NCBI GenBank assembly: GCA_021372315.1
Contig: JAJFUT010000109.1
Span: forward strand, 3,759 to 67,758
Direction of reading: 5' to 3'
Length of the DNA stretch: 64,000 nt
DNA from: Methanobacteriota archaeon
GTDB taxonomy: Archaea > Thermoplasmatota > Thermoplasmata > Methanomassiliicoccales > UBA472
Numbering within the stretch: position 1 is the first letter of the stretch; each line of letters opens with the position of its first letter. This document shows positions 618-48,640 of this stretch, in pieces. The notes under the pieces were generated by a model. The model did not search any database. It worked only from the letters and a program-made list of their open reading frames with translations, and was not told the DNA's origin. A program made the translations under genes and the position numbers.

Positions 618-2342
618 TCACGCCCCGGATATGGTTGGCGTGAAATCGACGTCCCTCGCGCAAACGCCGTTCTCCTGCCAGCGGCACCTTCCGCGGATGA
701 CCTCCTTGGACGATTTTCCGCCGGGCTGCATCGGGAGTATGTCCTCCTCCGGGTCCGTGTGGATGTCAACCAGGAACGGCACGTCGGACTTGAACGCCTT
801 CAAGAACGCCTCCCTTATCTCGGAGGGCCTCTCCACCTTGATCGAGTCCGCCCCATATGCCTTGGCCAGCATGACGAAATCGGGGTTCCTCTGAAGGTCC
901 GTTCCGGAGTAGCGCCTGTCGCTGAACAGCTTCTGCCACTGCCTGACCATTCCAAGCCAGTTGTTGTTGAACAGCGCCACCACGACTGGAAGGTCCTCGT
1001 TGACCGCCGTAGCGAACTCCTGCACGACCATCTGGAGCGATCCGTCGCCGGCGATGTCGACCACCTGCTTGTCGCGGTGGGCGTACTTGACGCCGAGCGA
1101 TGCCGGGAATCCGAAGCCCATCGTCCCCATCCCGCCCGAGGTTATGAAATGGTTCGGCATCTTCATCCTGAGCAGGTGAGCCGCCCACATCTGGTTCTGA
1201 CCCACCTCCGTGCACACGTAAGCGTCGTCCTTCAGGATCTTGCTCAGTTCGTAGATGATCTTCTGCGGCTTGATCGGTGGATCGCTGATGTTCATGTCGC
1301 AGTCGCACATCTCGCGAAGCTTCTTCATCCTGAGCGACCACTCGCTCTCGCCCTTGGCCTTCCCGAGCCCCTTGATGAGCTGCTGGAGCGCCTTCTTCGC
1401 GTCCGCTATGATCTTCACCTTCGTTCTCGGGTTCTTTCCGGCCTCCATCGGGTCTATGTCGATATGGATGATCTTGGTGGACTCCGGCATCTCGGACGGG
1501 ATCCCGGACGACCTGTCGCTGAACCTGGCCCCGATGACCACCATGACGTCGCATTCAAGGAACGCCTTTCTGGCGATCTCCCTACCATGCATCCCTATCA
1601 TGCCCAACGCCAGGGGATGCGTCTCGGGGATGATCCCCTTGCCCATGAGCGATGTCGCCACGGGGGCCATGAGCATCTCGGAGAGCTTCAGCACCTCCTT
1701 GCTGGCATTGGCCCACATGGCCCCGCCCCCGACCATCAGCATCGGTCTCTCGGCAGCCTTCAGAAGCTTCACGGCCTCAAGCACGCCTGAGAGGTCCTCG
1801 TACGGGGCCGGTACTGGGAACTCCTCATCCATCCAGCTCTCCTGCACCTCTCCCTTGATGATATCCACGGGGAGGTCGACATGAACTGGCCCCATCCTTC
1901 CGTTGATCGCGATGTTCCATCCCTTCTTGATCGCCTCAGGAAGGTTCCTGGTGTTCATCACGCGGAAGTTGTGCTTTGTGATAGGCATCATCAATGAGAA
2001 GATGTCCGCCTCCTGGAACGCGTTGTTGCCGATCATGCCGGTCGATACCTGGCCGGTCAGCACCATCATCGGCGAGGAGTCCGCATATGCGGTAGCCACT
2101 CCCGTCACGAGGTTGGTCGCTCCAGGACCCGAGGTGGCCAGGCACACGCCCGGTTTCCCCGTCGCTCTGGCATATCCGTCGGCCATGTGAGCCGCGCACT
2201 GTTCGTGCCTGACCAAGACGTGGTGGATATCGGAACCTATCAGGTCATCGTATATCTGGAGGGTAACGCCTCCTGGATATCCGAACATCACGTCCACGCC
2301 CTGTCTTTCGAGCAGATCCAGAACAGCCTTTGAGCCTTTCAT
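618..2342 (-). CDS. ilvB: acetolactate synthase (AHAS) large catalytic subunit
   Basis: 574-aa ORF. N-terminus MKGSKAVLDLLERQGVDVMFGYPGG; TPP motif IAGDGSLQM...NNNWLGMVRQWQ. A GGTGA motif lies 7 nt upstream of the ATG. Confidence 0.93.
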   Translation of the reverse strand: MKGSKAVLDLLERQGVDVMFGYPGGVTLQIYDDLIGSDIHHVLVRHEQCAAHMADGYARATGKPGVCLATSGPGATNLVTGVATAYADSSPMMVLTGQVSTGMIGNNAFQEADIFSLMMPITKHNFRVMNTRNLPEAIKKGWNIAINGRMGPVHVDLPVDIIKGEVQESWMDEEFPVPAPYEDLSGVLEAVKLLKAAERPMLMVGGGAMWANASKEVLKLSEMLMAPVATSLMGKGIIPETHPLALGMIGMHGREIARKAFLECDVMVVIGARFSDRSSGIPSEMPESTKIIHIDIDPMEAGKNPRTKVKIIADAKKALQQLIKGLGKAKGESEWSLRMKKLREMCDCDMNISDPPIKPQKIIYELSKILKDDAYVCTEVGQNQMWAAHLLRMKMPNHFITSGGMGTMGFGFPASLGVKYAHRDKQVVDIAGDGSLQMVVQEFATAVNEDLPVVVALFNNNWLGMVRQWQKLFSDRRYSGTDLQRNPDFVMLAKAYGADSIKVERPSEIREAFLKAFKSDVPFLVDIHTDPEEDILPMQPGGKSSKEVIRGRCRWQENGVCARDVDFTPTISGA

Positions 2343-2400
2343 CTCTCATTCACCTTTTTCAACGATGATGGAGGCACTCTTAACAGAAGGGTGCCTCATT

Positions 2401-2484
2401 TCAAATAACGACGACCACGCCCAAACGAAGAACAGCTGAGACGTTCGTGCTGTTATTTGACACGGTTATTGGGATAACCGGCAT
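2401..2484 (-). promoter_or_regulatory. candidate ilvB leader mini-ORF (27 codons, 13 of them Val/Ile/Leu) embedded in a hairpin-rich 5' region
   Basis: Reverse strand reads ATG CCG GTT ATC CCA ATA ACC GTG TCA AAT AAC AGC ACG AAC GTC TCA GCT GTT CTT CGT TTG GGC GTG GTC GTC GTT ATT TGA = MPVIPITVSNNSTNVSAVLRLGVVVVI*. Inverted repeats lie at 2463-2480 (CGGTTAT/ATAACCG), 2430-2455 (AACAGC/GCTGTT) and 2371-2397 (GAGGCAC/GTGCCTC). Expression has not been shown. Confidence 0.3.
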
Positions 2485-2486
2485 CG

Positions 2487-2498
2487 TATAAATATATT
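2487..2498. promoter_or_regulatory. TATA-like element (TATAAATATATT / AATATATTTATA); could serve ilvB (minus) or the grpB-like gene (plus)
   Basis: This is the only strongly AT-rich TATA-like block in the 310-bp ilvB upstream region. On the minus strand, 23 nt separate it from an in-frame GTG of the mini-ORF at 2463. Confidence 0.3.
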
Positions 2499-2652
2499 CC
2501 TTGATGCCCTGACGCCAGTCCGAACGAGCGATTCCAATCGAAAATCAATTTATCACTTGTTTCTGTACTGGATACAATTTCATTCACCTTTCTTATGAAG
2601 TGAAGTATTGAAAGACGGTTGATGCGTCATGAGCGGTTCATAACATGACGAG

Positions 2653-3149
2653 ATGTTGATCGTCGATTATGACCCCAAATGGTCTGAGATGTACCAGACC
2701 GAAGCAGCAATCATTCGAACGGCGCTCGAAGGCAGATGTACATCGATCGAGCATATAGGCAGCACTGCAGTGCCTGGGCTCTGCGCGAAGCATGTTATCG
2801 AATCATGGTCAGCGTCATGGACATCGACGAATTCAGGGAGCGCAATCAGGAGCTCGCCGATATGGGATATTTACACATGCCATTCGACGATGATGAGGGC
2901 CGATCGTTCTTCAGGAAAGGGATGCCGCGCACCCATCATCTACACGTCGTCGTCGAAGGCAGCGAGGCCTGGGAACCACACATCAGGTTCCGGGACCTTC
3001 TCCGCGGAGACCACGTCCTCAGGGAAAGGTACTCTCAGTTGGAACGGGGGAGCGCGGCACGTCAAAGGAACGACAGGCAGGCGTATCTCGATTCCAATCA
3101 TCAGCTCATAGACGAAGCGCTCCAGCGTCCACTGGTCGACCCACGGTGA
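2653..3149 (+). pseudogene. GrpB-family (UPF0157) protein, disrupted by a 1-nt frameshift near 2799-2803
   Basis: Frame 1 (2653..) gives MLIVDYDPKWSEMYQTEAAIIRTALEGRCTSIEHIGSTAVPGLCAKHVIE. The homology continues in the ORF that starts at 2736: IMVSVMDIDEF...GMPRTHHLHVVVEGSEAWEPHIRFRDLLRGDHVLRERYSQLE. Adding one base in GTTATCGA-ATCATGG would join the two frames. Confidence 0.7.
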
Positions 3150-4564: not shown

Positions 4565-5497
4565 TCAATCGGAGGAGAACGCGAAGCGCTTCGACATCTG
4601 CATGATCGCCTGGACGTTCCCCCTGGTGATGAGGGAGTATTCCCTGACGGCATCGAAACCGCATTTCTTGCAGGACTCCGTGCCCCTCATAGGGCATCCG
4701 TAATGATGCGAACGGTCAGGAAGGACGAACATCGAGACCCAGTCCGCGCACGTCTCCCCGTAGTCCTCGATGAGCATCTCCTTCAGGGCCTTTCCCGAGT
4801 TCAATATAGGCGCCCCCTCCTTCTTCAGGGCGATCGCCTGCCGGACGATCTCCTTCTTCTCGTCGAGCGTAAGCATGCTCTCGAACGGTGGGGGCGTCAG
4901 GAAGTTGAGCATGATCCCGTGTATCTTGTCGCTCTTCGAGACGATGTCCACGGTCTCCCTGAGGAGGTCCTTGTTCTCCTTCATGATGGTCATGTTGGCA
5001 AAGATGTTGGGATGATCGACCTTCTCGAGGTTCGCCATCAACATGTCGTAGACGCCATCGGAGCAGCGTATCTTGTCATGGACCTCCTTCGGTCCATCGA
5101 GCGAGACGGAGATGACGTCGCTGTTGGTGAAGATGACGTTCGTGCCATTGGTCGTATAGCCGGTAACGAAGTACCCGATGCCCTTTCCAGCCTCGACGAG
5201 GTCGCTTACGGTCCTATCGCCATCCTTCCACATCGTCGGCTCGCCGCCCTCGAAGAACAATATCCTGGCGCCCTTCTCGAACCCGAGCTTCATCTCCTCG
5301 ACGGCATCGGCGTAGCTCAGTCTCTTGACGTCAGGGAGGTTGGAAGCGTTCCCATGGATGCTGCAGTGCTTGCACTTGAGGTTGCACTCGAAGTTGATTA
5401 TCATCGTGTTAACGAGCGGCCTCTTCTTTCCGAAGACGCTCGCGATGAACCATCTGGCATAGTAGGTGTACTGACCCAAGGATATCAGTTTTGCCAT
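4565..5497 (-). CDS. radical SAM protein with a Cys-rich C-terminal (twitch/SPASM-like) region
   Basis: 310 aa. CNLKCKHC (CxxxCxxC) lies near residue 38. GGEPTMW is present. C-terminal region YGCPMRGTESCKKCGF. Confidence 0.8.
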   Translation of the reverse strand: MAKLISLGQYTYYARWFIASVFGKKRPLVNTMIINFECNLKCKHCSIHGNASNLPDVKRLSYADAVEEMKLGFEKGARILFFEGGEPTMWKDGDRTVSDLVEAGKGIGYFVTGYTTNGTNVIFTNSDVISVSLDGPKEVHDKIRCSDGVYDMLMANLEKVDHPNIFANMTIMKENKDLLRETVDIVSKSDKIHGIMLNFLTPPPFESMLTLDEKKEIVRQAIALKKEGAPILNSGKALKEMLIEDYGETCADWVSMFVLPDRSHHYGCPMRGTESCKKCGFDAVREYSLITRGNVQAIMQMSKRFAFSSD

Positions 5498-5705
5498 CGA
5501 CCATCGGGATGGGGGTCGGTATATTAATAATTGAGATGGGACGCTCCGATCGTGACGGTCCGAACTCTTATTGGCGATGGTTAATACCAGCTACGAGAAA
5601 TCATTGCATCACCACATTGAAACGATCACGATGCAACGATTAAATACTCATCAGGTCTTTTTTTATAATTGAAGGGGGGATCAAATAGCAAGTCTACGAA
5701 CTCAA

Positions 5706-5936
5706 GTGATCGAACAGATAGCGACTTTGATGACCGCAGCTTTCGCATTCGTGGCAGCATTGTCATGGAACCAGGCGATACTGGCGCTGATACGGGAATT
5801 TATCAGCCAGGAGGAAGACTGGGTATCCCTCATGGTAGTGGCAATAGTCATCACGATAATTGCGGTCATAGCAAGCTTGATGATCGCACGCGCCGCCTCA
5901 AAGGCCAAGGGAGCCGACGCAAAGGCGGGCAAGTAA
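5706..5936 (+). CDS. small two-TM membrane protein
   Basis: 76 aa with a GTG start preceded by GAAGGGGGGA. Two hydrophobic helices and a Lys/Ala-rich tail. Function unknown. Confidence 0.55.
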   Translation: MIEQIATLMTAAFAFVAALSWNQAILALIREFISQEEDWVSLMVVAIVITIIAVIASLMIARAASKAKGADAKAGK

Positions 5937-5946
5937 GCGCTATCCC

Positions 5947-5993
5947 GGCCGCTGTTGGCGGCCACACAATCCTTTTATCGTCCCTATTTTTTA
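5947..5993 (+). terminator. hairpin (GGCCGC-tgttg-GCGGCC) followed by T-tracts
   Basis: A perfect 6-bp stem at 5947-5963 lies directly after the stop at 5936. It is followed by CTTTTAT and ATTTTTTATT. Oligo-T is the usual archaeal termination signal. Confidence 0.3.
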
Positions 5994-6011
5994 TTCCCCT
6001 TGGAATTGCAC

Positions 6012-6323
6012 ATGCCGATACTAGCATACATCCTGATGTTCATCTCGATCGCACTGATAGCCTACGGTTTCACGGTCAGAGGTGGAGGGATCAAAGCCGT
6101 CCCCGGATACAAGCCTGACCCAAACGTGGAGGTCAGGGAGGAAGATCTCGTCAAGTTCGCGAGCAAGAACCTCGTGCTGATAGGCATCGTCGATCTCATC
6201 ATCGCCGCGGCTCTCATCCTGATCGGCGACGACGTTCTGGTATTCGCCGCCACCATACTGTTCACGCTGTTCATCTTCGTGGCGATCAGATATGCGTCGA
6301 AGGTGCTGGTCATCCCGAAATGA
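6012..6323 (+). CDS. hypothetical membrane protein
   Basis: An ATG at 6012 inside the 5955..6323 ORF gives MPILAYILMFISIALIAYGF... with three predicted TM helices. No recognisable domain. Confidence 0.5.
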   Translation: MPILAYILMFISIALIAYGFTVRGGGIKAVPGYKPDPNVEVREEDLVKFASKNLVLIGIVDLIIAAALILIGDDVLVFAATILFTLFIFVAIRYASKVLVIPK

Positions 6324-6393
6324 AAACGATATAACCAGTCGCACCGCAAGTCAAATATCGAATGAGAATATAACATATAACGGAGGGAGCGTT

Positions 6394-7410
6394 TTGAAGA
6401 TCAAGGTAGGGATCAACGGATTCGGCACTATCGGCAAGAGGGCCGCATGGGCGGTCTCAAAGCAGGACGACATGGAACTGGTCGGGGTAACGAAGACCAG
6501 GCCGAGCTTCGAGGCGCTGATGGCCATCGATCAAGGCTTCCCTCTTTACGCGGCATGCCAGGACGACGTCGCCGGTTTCGAGAAGGCCGGGATGAAGACC
6601 GCCGGCACGCTCGATGACCTGCTGACGAAGGTCGACATCATCGTCGACACGACGCCTGGAGGCGTGGCCGAGGGATACAAGTCCAAGTACGAGGCCGCGG
6701 GCGTCAAGGGAATATTCCAGGGTGGGGAGGACCACAGCCTCACTGGCATATCCTTCAACGCCATGGCCAACTATCACGAATCATGGGGGGCGAAGTTCTC
6801 CCGAGTGGTGTCCTGCAACACGACCGGACTTTGCCGCACCCTCTACCCGATCGACAAGGAGATAGGCGTCTCAAGGGTCATCGCGTCCCTCATCAGGAGA
6901 GGCGCCGACCCCGGTGACAGGAAGGGCTCGATGCTCAACGCCATCGAACCGTCGCTGAAGCTCCCGACACATCATGGACCTGACGTGCAGACGATCATGC
7001 CTTGGATGAACATCCAGACGATGGCCGTCGTCACTCCGACGACGCTCATGCACGTCCACTGCATCGCCGTAGACCTCAAGAGGAAGACGACCGAGGACGA
7101 GGTCGTCAGCATATGGCAGCTCACCCCGCGTGTCCGTCTGGTCCGCGGAAAGGACGGCATCAAGTCCACCGGCCAGGTCATGGAGCTCTCGAGGGACATG
7201 GGCAACCCGCGCGGCGACATGATGGAGATTGTTGTCTGGAAGGACGGAATCAAGGTCGTCGACGACCATCTGTACTACTATCAGGCGATACACCAGGAGA
7301 GCGATGTCGTGCCAGAGATAGTCGACTGCATAAGGTCGATGACAAAGCTCGAGCAGGACCCGCTCAGGTCGATCGCCAAAACGAATAAGGCGCTGGGCCT
7401 GTCAAAATAA
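6394..7410 (+). CDS. gap: archaeal type II glyceraldehyde-3-phosphate dehydrogenase
   Basis: TTG at 6394 is preceded by GGAGGGAG. (M)KIKVGINGFGTIGKR, SCNTTGL catalytic Cys, and a 338-aa length typical of archaeal GAPDH. The longer 6292 start would add non-homologous residues. Confidence 0.9.
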   Translation: MKIKVGINGFGTIGKRAAWAVSKQDDMELVGVTKTRPSFEALMAIDQGFPLYAACQDDVAGFEKAGMKTAGTLDDLLTKVDIIVDTTPGGVAEGYKSKYEAAGVKGIFQGGEDHSLTGISFNAMANYHESWGAKFSRVVSCNTTGLCRTLYPIDKEIGVSRVIASLIRRGADPGDRKGSMLNAIEPSLKLPTHHGPDVQTIMPWMNIQTMAVVTPTTLMHVHCIAVDLKRKTTEDEVVSIWQLTPRVRLVRGKDGIKSTGQVMELSRDMGNPRGDMMEIVVWKDGIKVVDDHLYYYQAIHQESDVVPEIVDCIRSMTKLEQDPLRSIAKTNKALGLSK

Positions 7411-32437: not shown

Positions 32438-33472
32438 TCAGAACTTCGTCACGACCGTCTTCATCCCGACCCTCGATCCAGCCTTCTCGAAGGCTTGCGG
32501 GAGACCTTCGAGTGACACCTTGTCCGTCACTAGCCAATCGACATCGACAGTGCCTTTCAGGATCATCTCGACCGCGAGCCGGTCCTGGCGGCTGGAATTG
32601 CCGTAGGCTCCGACAAGGCATATCTCCTTGTAATGCAGCCCCCTGATGTCCAACGGCACCTCATAGTTGTCCTTCTTCGGTCCGCTAAAGACCGATATCC
32701 GCCCCTGCGGGGCCATAAGCCTCAATATCCAGTTGTCGACCCTGACCTCCGGTGTGCTCATCAGGACGACGTCAGCTCCGTTCCCGCCGGTCTCGCTGGA
32801 GACGACCGCTTGGACGTCCTCCACGGACGGGTCTATCATCCGGTCGACCAGACCTTTAGGGATGATCTCCCTGCGGTTCCGAAGGTGCTCCGTCATGATC
32901 ACCTTGGCGGCCCCGTTCGCCCTGGCCAATATCGCATGCAGACAACCGATCGGCCCCCCGCCGAATATCAGAACGTCGTCTCCGGCGCCGACCCTTGCCA
33001 GTTCCTGCCCGTTGATGCAGCAGGCGAGAGGTTCGGACAGCGATATCGAAATGGGGTCGGCATCCTCCGGCAGCTTAACGATACCATTGGAACGGACCGA
33101 CTCCTCCGGGATGGCGATCCTCTGCGCGAATCCGCCATCGCGGTTGAATCCGAAAATGCCCTGCGTGGCGCACTGGTTGTCTATTCCTTTCAGACATGGG
33201 CGGCATCTACCACAGGGGATGCCGGGCCATATCTGTACGAGATCGCCCTCTTGTATCTGCGAGGAATTGGATGCGACGACCCTGCCGACCATCTCATGCC
33301 CGAGGATGCGCGGATAGACCAGGTCCTTGTGCCCGTTCTGCAGCATCTTCACATCGGTTCCGCAGACGGCGCAAGCGACGAGGTCGACCACCAGCCCTCC
33401 GACGGACAATACCGGGTCTGCGACCTCCTCAACGGAGAGATGCCCTGGACCGTGCATCACCGCTGCTCTCAT
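32438..33472 (-). CDS. zinc-dependent medium-chain alcohol/polyol dehydrogenase
   Basis: Internal ATG MRAAVMHGPG.... CAVCGTD, GHEMVG, a structural-Zn lobe CGRCRPC, and GGGPIG Rossmann. Confidence 0.85.
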   Translation of the reverse strand: MRAAVMHGPGHLSVEEVADPVLSVGGLVVDLVACAVCGTDVKMLQNGHKDLVYPRILGHEMVGRVVASNSSQIQEGDLVQIWPGIPCGRCRPCLKGIDNQCATQGIFGFNRDGGFAQRIAIPEESVRSNGIVKLPEDADPISISLSEPLACCINGQELARVGAGDDVLIFGGGPIGCLHAILARANGAAKVIMTEHLRNRREIIPKGLVDRMIDPSVEDVQAVVSSETGGNGADVVLMSTPEVRVDNWILRLMAPQGRISVFSGPKKDNYEVPLDIRGLHYKEICLVGAYGNSSRQDRLAVEMILKGTVDVDWLVTDKVSLEGLPQAFEKAGSRVGMKTVVTKF

Positions 33473-33564
33473 ATTGAGTTGGATATAACATCCAATTATA
33501 TAAATTGGATGATACATCCAATTAAAAAGGGGTCATCTGGACGATCGGGCCACTTCGTCCATTC

Positions 33565-43263: not shown

Positions 43264-46200
43264 TCATTTATCAGCTTGTCGCTTGATCGCGACCTTGACA
43301 GCCTCTTCTATCCGGTCCAACGTCCTCTCCCTGTCAAGCGCCCAATCCCGGGACCACACACGGATGGTGTTCCAGCCGAGGTTCTTGAGAACGCCCTCGC
43401 GGACGATCTCCCTGTCCCGTGCGTTCCGACCGGCGGTGTACGACGTTCCGTCGCAGAGCACTCCGATGAGATACCTGCCCTTCTGGGCCGGGTCCATGAC
43501 CGCCACGTCGACCCTTATCGAGGACGAACCCACGTTCCTGGCGACCTGGTGCCCCCTCGCGGTGAGCGCCGACGCTATGGAACCTTCGAGCATAGACTTC
43601 GACAGAGCGATCTCCTGCGGCGTCATCGCCACCCTCCCGCCCTTGGACTCGGCATGGTCGAGGTAGTCCCTCAGAAGGACGACCCCTAGAGGTCCGTTCT
43701 GGCCTACCTGTATATCCCTGGACATGATCGAAGAGACGACCTTCACGGACCTTCTGGCCCTGGTGATCGCCACGTTCAGCCTCCGCGCGCCTCCTTCCTG
43801 GTTCAGCGGCCCGAAGTTGAGCGTCATCGTCCCGTTCCCGTCCTTGCCATACCCGACGGAGAAGATCATGACGTCCCTCTCATCGCCCTGCACGTTCTCC
43901 AGGTTCTTCACGAAGAACGGCTCCGAGCCTTCGTCGTCGAAGAGGTTCGCGAGCTCGGGCCGGTCCCGGCTCATGGCCTTCACCTTGTACTCAAGAACGT
44001 CCAGGACCGCGTCCTGTTGCGCCACGCTGAACGCCACGACGCCCAACGACATCTCGGGATAGGCAAGGTATTGATCGATCACGGTGTCAGCGACGATCGC
44101 CGCCTCGATCCTGTTATCTCTCCTTCCGCCCCTGTCGTACACTCCGTCCTTGACATGGATGAGCTCTATCCCCTCGCCCGGTCTCGACGGTTCGGCCGAA
44201 GGCGTCGTGATGAGCTTGCCGCCGTAGAGGTGGCGGTTGGAGAATGAGATGAGCGATTCCTGCCTCGACCTGTAATGCCATAAGAGCATCCTCTGCTTAA
44301 GCCCTATCGTCCCGCACTCGTCCAGAATGCTCTCGAGGTCCTCTAGCTCGTCCTCGTCGTCGGTCTCCGAGATGCGGTCGAAGAAACGCGTCGGGGGCAG
44401 CTGCCTGTTATCGCCCACGACCACGAGCTGTTTTCCTCTCAGTATGCAGCAGATCGCGTCCTCCGGGACGATCTGGGACGCCTCGTCGAAGATGACGACG
44501 TCGAACTGCACCTTCTCTGGCGGAGGGAGGAACTGGCTTACGGATATGGGGCTCATCATGAAGCAGGGCTTGGCGACGCCGAGCACCGTCGGGCTCCTAG
44601 CTATCATCTCCCTGACCGCAGGCCTCTTCTTGCTGCCCTTGAGCCCGATGAGATAGCCCTCCTCCTGCCTCCACCTCTCGTCGGCGTTCATCCTGTTGTT
44701 CTTGATCTTGTCGAAAAGGAGCTTCCTGAGCCTGGCCTTGGATATTTCCCTGGAGTCCTTGTCGAGCTGCTTGTACTTGGATATCCTGTCCATGTGCTCG
44801 GACGAGTTGAACCGGCCGAGCGCCTGCTCCTTCGCGTGCAGCTCCTGCAGCCACAGCTGGAAGAACCTCTTCCTGAACATCGGCTTCAGGTCCGATAGCG
44901 CGGGCTGACGCTTCAGCACCTCCTCGTAGAGCGAACCGAGGCCTTCGGCCCTGAGCATCGCCTCGGTCTCCCTGAACTCGACCCACTCAGCGAGCCTGGC
45001 CTTGGCATCGACGTGGCCCTTGGCGAACGTCCTCAATCTGATCATCTCGGACGACCCGTCGAACGCCCTGAGGTTGTCAACAAAGAGGTTCCGTGCCGAC
45101 CCGAGCGCGAGGTCCAGGTCCTTCATCGCCCTGAGCGCCGTCGGTCCGTTACCGACGACGTCCTCCCTGAGCTCAGTTCCCTCGGCGACTACCTTCACCC
45201 ATGAGCCATCGTATCCGGGCATGTCCATGAACGATTTCGTCCAGCGCAGGGCAGATATGACCGGTCCCACGTCCTTTCCCATGTCGCCGTTATATCGTCC
45301 GAACCATTCAACGCCGTTCTTCTCGACATCTGCCAGCAATGTTTTGGCGCGCTGGTATTTTCTTAGGGCGAGCACGTCCCTGCGCGCGTCCTTGAACCCG
45401 ACCTTGCCGGTCGTGGACAGCATGTTGATCGCCTTCATGTCGATCCTGTAGCTAGTTCTGAAGATCCTGAGAAAGCTGGTATATTGCTTCTCGAACCTGT
45501 CCGCATAGGCGGTGCCGTCGAAGTCGAGGAACTCCTTCTTGTATCTCGTCAGGATGTATGCCTCGTTCGTGTTCGATTCGTCCGTGGCCGTCAGGAGCTT
45601 CATCGCTATGTCTAGGAGCCTCTCGGCCTCCCCCTTGGCGAACCAGTTCCTTGGCGGGAGCGGCGACCCTCCTGCGACGGAGAGCAGCGCCGAGAACTTA
45701 CGCATGGAATCGAGGCTCTTCGGGACCTCCATTCCCGCCTTCGGGCAGAACGCCGAGGATATCGCCAGAAGCTTCTCGATCTCCTTGAACACATCCTCCA
45801 GCCTGACGATGAGCTCCGCCTGTTCGGCCGGTCCGAGGTTCTTCAGGTCGCAGTCCCTCCATGGGTGGATCTCCCTCTCGACGAGAACGGACCTCGATGA
45901 GATGAGCCTCTGTATCGCATGCTCGGCGCTGTCCATCCTCTCCCTCGTGAAAGTCAGCGTGCCAGGGAGGTCGAACACGATCTGAGGATAATCATGCAGC
46001 GAGGCCAGCTCGCCATAGGCATGATGGGCGCTCATCTCCATAGGGCCCTGGGGGGAATGGAGCATGGCGACGTAGGCGTTGAGCTCCTCCCTGACGGTCC
46101 GCAGATGATTGAGCTTGAACTCGTCCTGCCCCTCGGTCCTGTGATCGACCATCTCGAGCGGACGAAGCATGCTCTCCAGAACGTCCTGCTTCGTCGGGTT

Positions 46201-47316
46201 GCTGGAGTGCATCTCGAGGCAGAATTCGCCCAGGCCGCAGCTGTCGAGCCTTCTCTTCACGACCTCCAGGGCGGCCATCTTCTCCGCGACGAACAGGACG
46301 GACTTGCCCTTAGCTAAGGACTCCGCGATGATGTTCGCGATCGTCTGGCTCTTGCCAGTGCCCGGAGGCCCGATGAGCACGAGGTTCTCCCCGCGCTTGA
46401 CGGCCTCGACAGCCTCCTGCTGGCTCGAGTCCGCCTCCAATATCTGATAGGTAGTGATGGGATCGAGCTCCCCCCCGGCAGGAGCGGTCCCTTCCGGCGG
46501 GACCCGCGAGAGATCGCCGGCGAGCGCCCTGAGGAGAGGGTGCTGCCTGATGGCGTCGGTGTTGCTTCTCAGGTCCTTATAGATGACGACCTTGGAGAAC
46601 ATGAACAGTCCGAGCAGAGGCTTCCCGATCTGAACGACCCAGCCGTTCCTCTTCATCAAGATGGCGGCAAGCGAGTTCAGGTAATCCAGGATGCTGAACC
46701 CCTCCAGGTCATCGGGCAGGGGCGGCAGGTCGGTGTTCATCTCCTTCCTGACCTTGAGCGCGAGCGCAGGGTTGAGGACGATCTCCTCCCCTATCACCTC
46801 AATAGTGTAGGACGATATCATCCCTTTCCTCGAGAGCTTGACCGGGGCTAACAGCAGCGGGGCCATGTGGACCTCGTCCTTCTCGTCCTTCCAGTTCAGC
46901 GTTCCGAACGTGACGAAGAGGGCGTCGACGCCCCTTTCCCTCCTGATGAGATTGGACTTTGAACGGAGGTTCCTGAGCACCTTCTCGGTGTTGGGGTTGA
47001 GCGTCGACGGCACCTCTCTCCCGTTCAGCACCGTAACGTTGTTGGAGAGGTCGCATTCCCTTCCGCCTGAAGGGTCCTCCCTGAACTCGTCCCTGAACTT
47101 CTCGCAATGGAGGGAAAGTGTCTTCCGATCGAGAACGAGACCGTTGAAGATGTCCTTCATTTCGGAACCGTTGATGATTATCGTCGCGGACTTCGTCATC
47201 CTGTAGTTCAGGAGCTTGTTGCTCATGCTGAGGTCGATCAGCTTCGACCCCCAGTCCGCGATCTTCTCGTCCAAGGTCATCTTCGTCTGCGTCACTTTAT
47301 TCCCCCTGCTGGTCAT
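43264..47316 (-). CDS. DUF4011-type N-terminal domain + Upf1-like SF1 helicase + C-terminal Vsr/DUF559-like (REase-fold) domain
   Basis: 1350 aa. N-terminus LIDLSMSNKLLNYR and GVDALFVTFGTLNW...APLLLAPVKL. Walker A GPPGTGKSQT, Walker B VIFDEASQI, GDNRQLPPT, WHYRSRQESLISFSN, GDERDVMIFSVGYG, RRLNVAITRARR. Tail IRVDVAVMD...YLIGVLCDGTSY...ARDREIVREGVLKNLGWNTIRVWSRDW. Confidence 0.85.
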   Translation of the reverse strand: MTSRGNKVTQTKMTLDEKIADWGSKLIDLSMSNKLLNYRMTKSATIIINGSEMKDIFNGLVLDRKTLSLHCEKFRDEFREDPSGGRECDLSNNVTVLNGREVPSTLNPNTEKVLRNLRSKSNLIRRERGVDALFVTFGTLNWKDEKDEVHMAPLLLAPVKLSRKGMISSYTIEVIGEEIVLNPALALKVRKEMNTDLPPLPDDLEGFSILDYLNSLAAILMKRNGWVVQIGKPLLGLFMFSKVVIYKDLRSNTDAIRQHPLLRALAGDLSRVPPEGTAPAGGELDPITTYQILEADSSQQEAVEAVKRGENLVLIGPPGTGKSQTIANIIAESLAKGKSVLFVAEKMAALEVVKRRLDSCGLGEFCLEMHSSNPTKQDVLESMLRPLEMVDHRTEGQDEFKLNHLRTVREELNAYVAMLHSPQGPMEMSAHHAYGELASLHDYPQIVFDLPGTLTFTRERMDSAEHAIQRLISSRSVLVEREIHPWRDCDLKNLGPAEQAELIVRLEDVFKEIEKLLAISSAFCPKAGMEVPKSLDSMRKFSALLSVAGGSPLPPRNWFAKGEAERLLDIAMKLLTATDESNTNEAYILTRYKKEFLDFDGTAYADRFEKQYTSFLRIFRTSYRIDMKAINMLSTTGKVGFKDARRDVLALRKYQRAKTLLADVEKNGVEWFGRYNGDMGKDVGPVISALRWTKSFMDMPGYDGSWVKVVAEGTELREDVVGNGPTALRAMKDLDLALGSARNLFVDNLRAFDGSSEMIRLRTFAKGHVDAKARLAEWVEFRETEAMLRAEGLGSLYEEVLKRQPALSDLKPMFRKRFFQLWLQELHAKEQALGRFNSSEHMDRISKYKQLDKDSREISKARLRKLLFDKIKNNRMNADERWRQEEGYLIGLKGSKKRPAVREMIARSPTVLGVAKPCFMMSPISVSQFLPPPEKVQFDVVIFDEASQIVPEDAICCILRGKQLVVVGDNRQLPPTRFFDRISETDDEDELEDLESILDECGTIGLKQRMLLWHYRSRQESLISFSNRHLYGGKLITTPSAEPSRPGEGIELIHVKDGVYDRGGRRDNRIEAAIVADTVIDQYLAYPEMSLGVVAFSVAQQDAVLDVLEYKVKAMSRDRPELANLFDDEGSEPFFVKNLENVQGDERDVMIFSVGYGKDGNGTMTLNFGPLNQEGGARRLNVAITRARRSVKVVSSIMSRDIQVGQNGPLGVVLLRDYLDHAESKGGRVAMTPQEIALSKSMLEGSIASALTARGHQVARNVGSSSIRVDVAVMDPAQKGRYLIGVLCDGTSYTAGRNARDREIVREGVLKNLGWNTIRVWSRDWALDRERTLDRIEEAVKVAIKRQADK

Positions 47317-47548
47317 TCATCGCATGGGTAATAATGGATTTGCTCCAAGAACCCTTTAAAGGAATCATTGGGAATGGCAGGCCGTCCGATCGGAACGGCG
47401 CCGCAGGGGTTAGTTCGTTGACCCAGATTCGACGTCGGATGCGCCATGCCGTCTTTTTATAATAAAAAAAATATTAATAACCTATTTAAACATGGACGTA
47501 TTAAATAATACGTTTGTCATAGTGTAAAGCTCACCCCGAGGTTGTTTA

Positions 47549-48640
47549 ATGATTCGTTTTGGTCCAGCTGGTATTCCTCTCTCTTGTAAGGGGAGGACGT
47601 TAAAAGACGGAATCGAGGACGTCCACAATCTAGGCCTTAACGCCATGGAGGTCCAGATGGTCAGGGTCAATGTAGTCGAAAGGGTGCCTGACGAAGAGGA
47701 GGTGGGCCTGACCCCGATGGACGTGGAGAGCGACCTCATCATAGAGATGCTCCGCCAGGTCAAGAAGAAGAATACCATCATCACGAACGTCAACGATAAG
47801 ATCAAGGCGGACGACACCCTCATCACGCTGGCCTCCGGTCTCGTTCAGAACTTCAAGGAGCTGAAGGGATTGGGGACGATGGGGAAGGAGCTCGACGTGG
47901 AGCTCACCATGCACACTCCGTATTATATGGACCTCACCTCCGGCAACGAGCTCACTAAGAAGAGCATCGACAGCATCAGGTGGGCCGGCCTGCTCACGAA
48001 CCACATGGAAGGGTCCATGGTCGTCTCTCACATCGGTCTCTATGGCGACCCCCAGAAGATGAGCAAGAAGCAGGCTTACAAGGTCATCAAGGAGAACATC
48101 GAAGGCGTGATGGCGTTCTGGAGCAAGAACAAGATCAAGGCGAAGCTCGGCTTCGAGACGTCCGGAAGGCAGGAGGTGTTCGGCAGCCTGGAGGAGCTGA
48201 TACAGCTCAGCGACGAGATAGACGGCATCGTGCCGGTGCTCAACTTCGCTCACCTCCATGCCAGGCAGAACGGGACCCTCAGGGAGCCGCAGGACTTCGG
48301 CGAGCTCTTCGACAGGCTTAAAACCTATGTCGGCGGGCACTATTACACTCATTTCGCAGGCGTCGAGCATGAGGGAGGGAACGAGAAGAGGGTCACTCCC
48401 ATCAAGAAGGGAGACCTTCGCTTCGAGCCCTTGGCCGAGTACCTGGCCGACGAGAATCCCGAATGCACGATAATCTCCAGCTCGCCGCTGCTCGAGCACG
48501 ACGCGATGTACATGAAGGTCATCTACGAGCGCGTCATGACGAAGAAGGTCTGCAAGGACACGAAGGCGGGCAAGAAGGACAAGTCTAAGTCAAGGGACGA
48601 CGACGATGACTATTATGACGACGACAAGGACGTTGATTGA
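47549..48640 (+). CDS. endonuclease IV-like TIM-barrel (xylose-isomerase-like) protein with an internal insertion and a charged tail
   Basis: 363 aa. MIRFGPAGIP...LNAMEVQMV, ...LTMHTPYYMDL, VVSHIG, GFETSG, NFAHLHA, THFAGVEH. C-terminal KAGKKDKSKSRDDDDDYYDDDKDVD. Confidence 0.7.
   Translation: MIRFGPAGIPLSCKGRTLKDGIEDVHNLGLNAMEVQMVRVNVVERVPDEEEVGLTPMDVESDLIIEMLRQVKKKNTIITNVNDKIKADDTLITLASGLVQNFKELKGLGTMGKELDVELTMHTPYYMDLTSGNELTKKSIDSIRWAGLLTNHMEGSMVVSHIGLYGDPQKMSKKQAYKVIKENIEGVMAFWSKNKIKAKLGFETSGRQEVFGSLEELIQLSDEIDGIVPVLNFAHLHARQNGTLREPQDFGELFDRLKTYVGGHYYTHFAGVEHEGGNEKRVTPIKKGDLRFEPLAEYLADENPECTIISSSPLLEHDAMYMKVIYERVMTKKVCKDTKAGKKDKSKSRDDDDDYYDDDKDVD

Follow-up and report, generated by a model that had tools for sequence, protein, structure and literature searches.

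Leader-peptide attenuation is a textbook case of regulation through coupled transcription and translation and is treated as a bacterial speciality. In enterobacteria, the leaders of the ilvBN and ilvGMEDA operons (ivbL and ilvL, respectively) carry runs of Val, Ile and Leu codons, and charged tRNA is sensed by ribosome stalling. Here we describe an arrangement in an archaeon that recalls these leaders. It lies upstream of the acetolactate synthase gene ilvB in a stretch of 64,000 nucleotides (nt), hereafter the window, taken from contig JAJFUT010000109.1 of a Methanomassiliicoccales genome (assembly GCA_021372315.1), and all positions below are counted within it. The element consists of a small open reading frame (ORF) rich in branched-chain codons and two RNA hairpins. 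The comparisons set out below show it to be real, conserved and specific. It is probably a leader peptide that acts in cis, senses the supply of branched-chain aminoacyl-tRNAs and thereby controls the acetolactate synthase gene, which in most relatives means ilvB-ilvN-ilvC.

The likeness to ivbL and ilvL lies in a short ORF with Val/Ile/Leu codon runs ahead of acetolactate synthase genes. However, the enterobacterial leaders are led by a Shine-Dalgarno sequence, hold their control codons in the first segment of a set of 1:2/2:3/3:4 helices and use a hairpin plus U-tract as terminator. The archaeal leader is predicted to be leaderless, with its control codons at the 3' end and two static hairpins. 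It therefore shares the cognate-codon ORF of the classical attenuator family and lacks two of the defining properties, alternative helices and the hairpin with a U-tract. Other bacterial systems resemble the working model proposed below in that the stance of a ribosome relative to a hairpin or factor site decides the fate of the polymerase. The E. coli pyrBI and pyrE attenuators depend on ribosome position without an antiterminator, and the tnaC and mgtL leader peptides gate Rho. These use intrinsic terminators or Rho, whereas an archaeal counterpart would need FttA/aCPSF1 or some other route. The ilvBNC attenuator of C. glutamicum, reportedly described by Morbach in 2000, offers a further comparison. 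Its leader is likewise leaderless and rich in Ile and Val, a first hairpin buries the start codon, and the genes controlled are ilvB-ilvN-ilvC (PMC11857589). It differs in having strand-exchanging antiterminator/terminator hairpins and control codons near the 5' end, neither of which is found in the archaeal leader. The mycobacterial poly-Cys small ORF (sORF) is also leaderless, with cognate codons clustered at its 3' end, an untranslated spacer and a biosynthetic gene led by a Shine-Dalgarno sequence (bioRxiv 10.1101/834739). There the Cys tract pairs with the downstream Shine-Dalgarno, whereas the archaeal tract pairs with the 5' end of its own ORF. Deinococcus deserti, with 14 predicted leaderless leader peptides (PMC4007540), is among the three bacterial leaderless cases that most resemble the archaeal element. 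No description of leader-peptide attenuation in Archaea was found in the literature searched, an absence that is not proof. A review of archaeal transcription-translation coupling does not mention attenuation (PMC8116511) and a general coupling review touches on archaea only in passing (PMC7858274).

The presumed regulated gene, ilvB, occupies 618..2342 (-). Its product, a biosynthetic-type acetolactate synthase large subunit, has the N, M and C domains of the TPP_enzyme families and scores 702.7 bits on TIGR00118 (cut-off 538). A Shine-Dalgarno (AGGUGA) can be read at 2350..2355 (-), and relatives have a GGAGG- or GGUGA-type sequence at the equivalent place. Relatives were collected by a scan at one genome per species, which gave 80 ilvB loci (L001 to L080) from Methanomassiliicoccales and related Thermoplasmatota, at 51-85% protein identity. 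In most clades ilvB is followed by ilvN (the ACT-domain small subunit), ilvC (ketol-acid reductoisomerase) or both, so the regulated unit is a biosynthetic one. Leaders in these loci were located by their stop codons, whichever start codon might be used. Counts on 54 leaders refer to the 53 element-bearing loci among the 80 plus the window.

In an initial annotation the leader was a 27-codon ORF at 2401..2484 (-), MPVIPITVSNNSTNVSAVLRLGVVVVI*, with 8 Val, 3 Ile and 2 Leu, and the translation agrees. Evidence from relatives and promoter spacing instead favours a shorter form of 20 codons plus stop, (M)SNNSTNVSAVLRLGVVVVI*, at 2401..2463 (-). Either form ends in a Val-Val-Val-Val-Ile run (GTG GTC GTC GTT ATT; 2404..2418, (-)), the presumed stalling site. 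That annotation had proposed aligning the upstream regions of relatives as a check on conservation. A branched-chain-rich tail does precede ilvB in 53 of the 80 loci, in one frame only and beyond a single order. Together with the window these fall into 13 sequence groups that include distant Thermoplasmata. The leaders are 20-28 codons long with a C-terminal half made up mostly of Val, Ile and Leu, and the frame ends 47-65 nt ahead of ilvB. Endings include ...GVVVVI, ...VVMTVI, ...TAVVIL, ...TVVVVLG, ...GVVVVLIR, ...AVVIIIS, ...GIIIR and ...LLVVLVVR, and in the distant Thermoplasmata ...LVLLVLTLGVPVDLRIEGL. Composition is kept between groups and sequence is not.

The coding signal is confined to one frame and to one half of the leader. 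The Ile/Leu/Val fraction of the C-terminal half is 0.64 in frame, as against 0.20 in the +1 frame and 0.14 in the +2 frame, 0.22 in the N-terminal half and 0.22 in the IlvB protein. The direction is the same in 13/13 groups, which gives a Wilcoxon p of 2.4e-4 for each comparison (with the other frames and with the N-terminal half), the minimum possible for n = 13. The final eight positions of the leader, taken over the 13 group representatives, hold 104 residues, and 66 of these are Ile, Leu or Val (binomial p = 9e-15). Gap runs in the alignments are divisible by three in 127/133 cases inside the leader ORF and in 12/103 after the stop, a contrast that arises partly by construction. Some of the codons in the window leader are non-preferred ones: ATT makes up 7% of Ile codons, TTG 7% of Leu codons and GTT 15% of Val codons.

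The element is not found everywhere. It is missing, both as leader ORF and as hairpin pair, from L051-L058, L060-L066, L068-L070, L072-L078 and L080, which are mostly of Methanomethylophilaceae type and host-associated. The element has thus been lost in that branch or was never gained there. These loci serve as an internal negative control among the 80, since they show that the element is not a general property of sequence upstream of ilvB. Conversely, some second ilvB paralogues have leader copies of their own, namely those of L067, L071 and L079 and, in tandem, L001. The tandem copy in L001 (L001:4740-4965) precedes a second ilvB-like gene (4966-6681) and encodes 45 codons ending in SLPVVLSVVV*. 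It is situated inside the operon, away from any promoter, and begins with a strong Shine-Dalgarno, AGGAGGTG-cag-ATG; a hairpin, the spacer motif CAUUG (see below) and the Shine-Dalgarno of the gene follow. An internal copy with its own Shine-Dalgarno is what a requirement for leader translation would lead one to expect. The copies in L067, L071 and L079 (about 2865-3000) belong to a distant acetolactate synthase paralogue (~52% identity). They have the leader MEQTALTAGS..QLLVVLVVR* and a hairpin GGGGAG..CUCCCC, and in L067 an ACT-domain small subunit follows. L071 and L079 come from the same metagenome-assembled genomes as L037 and L032.

Where does the leader begin? The TATA box of the leader/ilvB promoter, AATATATTTATA, is at 2487..2498 (-). 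As the initial annotation had pointed out, it ends only 2 nt before the ATG at 2484, an in-frame GTG is present at 2463 and no oligo-T follows the last hairpin. The caveat given there, that the true start may be a leaderless GTG at 2463, is borne out by relatives. In ~45 related loci the end of the TATA 7-mer (TTATATA, TTAAATA or ATTAATA) lies 23-24 nt ahead of an in-frame GTG or ATG. In the window the distance is 23 nt, to the GTG at 2461..2463 (-), which coincides with the predicted transcription start or adjoins it. In archaea the centre of the TATA box usually lies near -27 relative to the transcription start. With the box centred there, a gap of 23-24 nt puts the start codon at the 5' end of the RNA. 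Furthermore, in the nearest relatives (L001 and L003-L008) the frame is open only from the equivalent of the GTG at 2463. The leader ORF thus appears to be leaderless and in the window to begin at this GTG; the ATG at 2484 would lie outside the transcript.

The region from 2463 to the ilvB ATG is predicted to fold with -39.3 kcal/mol (z = -2.62 against dinucleotide shuffles). An inverted-repeat search of the window leader recovered all three repeats listed in the initial annotation, at 2371-2397 (11 nt arms, 91%), 2428-2457 (which contains AACAGC/GCTGTT) and 2463-2480 (7/7). It also returned a fourth, TCAAATAAC/GTTATTTGA, in which 2401-2409 and 2452-2460 are complementary at 9/9 positions. The AACAGC/GCTGTT repeat and this fourth one form the inner part and the outer stem of a single structure, hairpin I (2401..2460, (-)), in which the ORF is folded on itself. 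The outer stem joins UCAAAUAAC (2460-2452) with GUUAUUUGA (2409-2401), the latter being the final two codons and the stop. In 53/54 loci such pairing joins the initial 18 nt of the RNA to the final 27 nt of the ORF and leaves the start codon at the foot of the stem, so that a start-sequestering hairpin of the C. glutamicum type is present. The pairing accounts for a 5' motif that is independent of the frame, GUGUCAAAYAAC, and for the N-terminal 'SNN' of the peptide; reverse-complementing AUU and GUU gives the codons AAU and AAC. Hairpin II (GAGGCAC...GUGCCUC; 2371..2397, (-)) stands directly 3' of the leader stop. It is present in 54/54 leaders at -9.7 to -21.5 kcal/mol, and in 53/54 it begins at a distance of 0-6 nt from the stop codon's first base.

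Both hairpins covary. The arms of hairpin II are unrelated between clades (GAGGCAC/GUGCCUC, GAGGACG/CGUCCUC, GGGUCGACUC/GAGUCGGCCC and GGGGAG../..CUCCCC). In alignment A1, 91% of cells are paired compared with 80% after shuffling (0/500 shuffles reached this), compensatory changes are seen in 5/8 pairs, and shifting the 3' partner cuts pairing to 30-64%. RNAalifold returned no structure for a single alignment of all clades, because the register of the helices with respect to the stop codon changes from clade to clade, and in a sub-alignment of groups E, F and G the registers were still shifted. For this reason a register-free test was used in which the 5' and 3' arms were exchanged among 17 clade representatives. 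Native hairpin I stands at -16.7 kcal/mol and chimeric versions at -10.2, and the corresponding values for hairpin II are -16.2 and -10.8. In neither case did any of 20000 permutations reach the native value. The initial annotation had listed three stems, and two of them, AACAGC/GCTGTT (as the inner part of hairpin I) and 2371-2397, are indeed conserved and covarying. The third, 2463-2480, is specific to the window and lies upstream of the predicted transcript. Its 7 bp are found in the window only, relatives resembling shuffled sequence here, which rules it out as a conserved operator or RNA stem. Viewed as DNA, the palindrome (CGGTTAT-cccA-ATAACCG) falls between the TATA box and the predicted transcription start. 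The chance probability is about 0.002 for a 27-nt stretch, and among relatives only L003 has as much as 6 bp of it. A repressor site confined to this lineage is one possibility.

The distance from the last branched-chain codon to hairpin II links decoding with structure. Counted between that codon's first base and the base at which pairing in hairpin II begins, it is 8 nt in 32/54 loci and 9 nt in the window, and 8 nt is the median in 9/10 Methanomassiliicoccales groups. When the last sense codon is a branched-chain one, hairpin II starts 5 nt past the first base of the stop; when one extra codon (G, Q, R or S) comes before the stop, hairpin II starts 2 nt past it. The spacing is thus kept by compensating shifts of the stop codon and hairpin II. 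The linker between hairpins I and II varies from 1 to 7 nt. Therefore the constant distance is tied to the codon and not to stacking of the helices. The footprint of an elongating archaeal ribosome spans 27 nt and reaches 11 nt from the A site to its 3' boundary (PMC7261190). With a spacing of 8 nt, hairpin II thus begins within the footprint, a few nt short of that boundary, when a ribosome waits on the last branched-chain codon.

What such a ribosome would do to the two hairpins was computed with partition functions for all 54 loci. The ranges that follow reflect two assumed limits of the leading edge, the nuclease footprint and the helicase boundary. On free RNA the probabilities of hairpins I and II are 0.64 and 0.84. 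With a ribosome on the first branched-chain codon of the tail they are 0.10-0.33 and 0.86-0.87, on the last branched-chain codon 0.01 and 0.39-0.76, and on the stop codon 0.10-0.11 and 0.07-0.26. The computed states are consequently three: free RNA would have both hairpins folded and the start buried, a ribosome waiting on a branched-chain codon would leave hairpin I open and hairpin II folded, and a ribosome on the stop would hold both open.

These states suggest how a leader-peptide sensor might work. The first ribosome would load on the nascent leaderless 5' end and trail RNA polymerase. If Val-, Ile- and Leu-tRNAs are plentiful, it would get to the stop codon and keep hairpin II from closing by occupying its 5' arm. 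The spacer and the 3' arm would then emerge naked and ribosome-free, which would favour early abortion of the transcript, through termination or cleavage, by a factor such as FttA/aCPSF1. Once the ribosome is released, hairpin I would close, bury the start codon and block re-initiation. Since hairpin I buries the start once the ORF is vacated, reading would be limited to the first co-transcriptional ribosome. If, on the other hand, the tRNAs are scarce, the ribosome would stall just short of hairpin II and the hairpin would fold at once. About 10-20 nt of naked RNA would be left before the ilvB Shine-Dalgarno, a ribosome would load there and the operon would be expressed. In a biosynthetic operon hairpin II folded should mean ON. 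FttA has been proposed to be sterically excluded by a coupled ribosome (PMC11616081), and aCPSF1 cleaves single-stranded RNA (PMC3553952).

Not all parts of this model stand on the same footing. The sensing half is well supported. Conservation, anatomy, covariation, spacing and the frame-specific composition are observed and the three structural states computed, whereas translation, stalling, a consequence for ilvB and regulation by amino-acid supply are inferred. Output via factor-dependent termination of the FttA/aCPSF1 type is our favoured version of the remaining step, though a tentative hypothesis that in this exact form is less likely than not. It would make this the first archaeal case of ribosome-mediated leader-peptide attenuation, through a mechanism not used in bacteria: two static hairpins would be gated by a leaderless pioneer ribosome, and the folding of hairpin II would decide on abortion by an FttA/aCPSF1-type factor without an intrinsic terminator or an antiterminator. 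That combined proposal we regard as doubtful.

Several observations weigh against a leader-peptide sensor or against its proposed output. The 8-nt rule is broken in the Thermoplasmata groups, where the spacing is 4, 5 or 12 nt. The relatives are all metagenome-assembled genomes, and the clade representatives exchanged in the arm-swap test are not phylogenetically independent. About 60% of the leaders start with GUG, so that the efficiency of initiation at a 5'-terminal GUG in this order is a caveat. The loci show no termination signal in the form of a T-run after hairpin II or a conserved alternative helix. The ilvB Shine-Dalgarno is about equally accessible in all ribosome states, and an off switch is not evident. 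If a trailing ribosome simply aids the polymerase, as in the plainer coupling models, the sign is wrong for a biosynthetic gene, and it is because of this that the FttA step was added. Finally, synonymous positions in the leader tail are strongly conserved within groups. The constraint on the tail at the RNA level is real and could in principle explain part of the pattern.

This last point raises the question of whether the RNA alone matters. The element might be a structured non-coding 5' leader, such as a protein site or a stability element, in which pairing of a U/G-rich 3' arm with an A-rich 5' arm yields the reading frame incidentally. The strong covariation of both hairpins would be expected of such an RNA, as would the conserved synonymous positions, and the N-terminal 'SNN' would be the mere reverse complement of Val and Ile codons. 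Yet a by-product frame does not account for enrichment of Ile/Leu/Val in one frame only in 13/13 groups, with stop codons in the other frames. The frame always opens at a start 23 or 24 nt past the TATA box and closes at the foot of hairpin II, its indels are multiples of three, and the operon-internal copy has its own Shine-Dalgarno. The constant distance, moreover, starts from a codon defined by its amino acid, although the linker between the hairpins ranges from 1 to 7 nt. Loops and bulges differ freely between clades with no conserved unpaired nucleotides of the sort that form a ligand pocket, and the leader has no Rfam match at the gathering score or even at E <= 10. The same two results argue against a riboswitch or another curated RNA family. 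On balance a non-coding leader is an unlikely explanation. What if the peptide itself matters instead? A small ORF that is conserved, with a polar head and a hydrophobic tail, could encode a micro-protein that is co-expressed with acetolactate synthase and senses nothing. However, only composition is kept between groups, and a micro-protein gives no reason for the tight positional link to two RNA hairpins. The hydrophobic stretch is also just 5-12 residues long, too short to span a membrane, since transmembrane helices need a longer one. It is very hard to believe that the ORF is conserved on this account.

The other two alternatives accept a sensor and differ in its output. A transcription attenuator of the bacterial type, close to what the initial annotation had envisaged with its three hairpins, would use hairpin II as an intrinsic terminator, and stalling in the leader would favour an antiterminator helix. 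A stable G+C-rich hairpin directly after a leader ORF rich in cognate codons is suggestive of this, and the C. glutamicum ilvBNC leader (PMC11857589) is a precedent for a leaderless peptide combined with a first hairpin that buries the start. However, no clade has a T-run after hairpin II; longer T-runs occur only in the loops of some clades. Gene ends in the window are marked by T-tracts, with runs of 5 or more after 14% of stop codons and 0% of mid-gene controls, and hairpins are not enriched there. This agrees with archaeal Term-seq data, in which terminators are U-tracts without hairpins (PMC8716108). The antiterminator is missing too. An arm-swap screen of 18 segment pairs matched only hairpins I and II. 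After correction for multiple testing 0/16 alternative pairings were matched, the best (the 5' arm with the spacer) reaching 131/20000 at ~1 kcal/mol. The sign is wrong as well: on reaching the stop the ribosome sits over the 5' arm of hairpin II, and the supposed terminator would therefore be prevented by completion of the leader and permitted by stalling. And the 2463-2480 hairpin, counted as one of the three, is outside the predicted RNA and not conserved. The three-hairpin architecture thus reduces to two hairpins, and an attenuator of this type is improbable. So, to a like degree, is a translational attenuator of the mycobacterial poly-Cys or ermC type, in which the position of the ribosome would hide or expose the ilvB Shine-Dalgarno. 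The architecture of a leaderless sORF with cognate codons at its 3' end fits the mycobacterial case (bioRxiv 10.1101/834739). In addition, CCUC at the end of the 3' arm of hairpin II could form pairs with GGAGG, and the minimum-energy folds of L004, L025, L031 and L033 join part of hairpin II to the Shine-Dalgarno region. Against this, partition functions with a ribosome mask at every leader codon of the 54 loci give the Shine-Dalgarno and start a mean unpaired probability of 0.42 on free RNA and of 0.39, 0.41 and 0.41 with the ribosome early, in the tail and at the stop. Neither arm of hairpin II shows matched covariation with the Shine-Dalgarno, the versions in the Thermoplasmata and in group I lack the CCUC/GAGG motif, and any effect would last only while the ribosome stays on the stop codon. 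A leader-peptide sensor with some other output is therefore the reading we retain.

The spacer between hairpin II and ilvB has features of its own. The Shine-Dalgarno lies about 10-20 nt 3' of the hairpin, and 4-8 nt 3' of it comes a motif, [C/G]AU[U/C]G (CAUCG at 2363..2367 (-) in the window), supported by near-invariant A-T columns in alignment A1 and by group-weighted base frequencies. This motif was considered as a 'CA' cleavage site for aCPSF1 (PMC3553952) and set aside as a weak lead, the near-universal part being AU[U/C]G alone, with GAU in groups B and C. The spacer at 2363-2370 and its equivalents in all loci resemble the 3' arm of hairpin I (e.g., UCGUUAUUUGA and UCGUUGA). Pairing of the spacer with the 5' end of the RNA is the weak candidate noted above in the arm-swap screen (131/20000, ~1 kcal/mol) and is too weak to call. 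A second small ORF, MRHPSVKSASIIVEKGE* at 2346-2399 (-), opens 2 nt past the leader stop, crosses hairpin II and ends 3 nt ahead of the ilvB ATG. Similar ORFs (MRH...) are seen only in the two closest relatives (L001 and L003), and this one is probably not part of the conserved element.

Searches for similar elements speak to specificity. The full architecture, that is a TATA box, ~23 nt, a start, a small ORF and a hairpin at its stop, occurs once on the two strands of the 64-kb window. The other eight distinct candidates in the window that combine a TATA box and a small ORF have neither a hairpin at the stop nor an amino-acid bias. Elsewhere in the 80 loci (1.27 Mb searched) similar leaders amount to an unbiased background, with the exception of the second L001 copy.

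Some other features of the window were recorded along the way. An 11-codon ORF at 47492-47527 (+), MDVLNNTFVIV, has leaderless TATA geometry and a very A+T-rich promoter region, and ends 21 nt before a gene for a xylose-isomerase-like TIM-barrel protein (47549-48640). It has no hairpin pair and no branched-chain link and is probably a chance occurrence. At 43264-47316 (-) a protein of 1350 amino acids combines DUF4011 and AAA_11/AAA_12 helicase domains with a C-terminal MTES_1575 restriction-endonuclease-like domain, and its domain content identifies it as a putative helicase-nuclease of the kind often found in defence islands. At about 33470-33525, the TATA box of a gene of leaderless geometry (33472-32438, (-)) has operator-like palindromes, AATTGGATG...CATCCAATT, repeated on either side of it.

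If the leader peptide described here is what it seems, then ribosome-polymerase coupling in archaea would be tight enough for regulatory use. The element has neither a U-tract nor an alternative helix, and its output step should therefore reveal a mechanism not seen in the bacterial paradigms. That step is probably non-bacterial. At about 125 nt the element would also be a compact natural reporter for coupling, leaderless initiation and FttA/aCPSF1 termination, and would provide a template for finding the leaders of other archaeal amino-acid operons.

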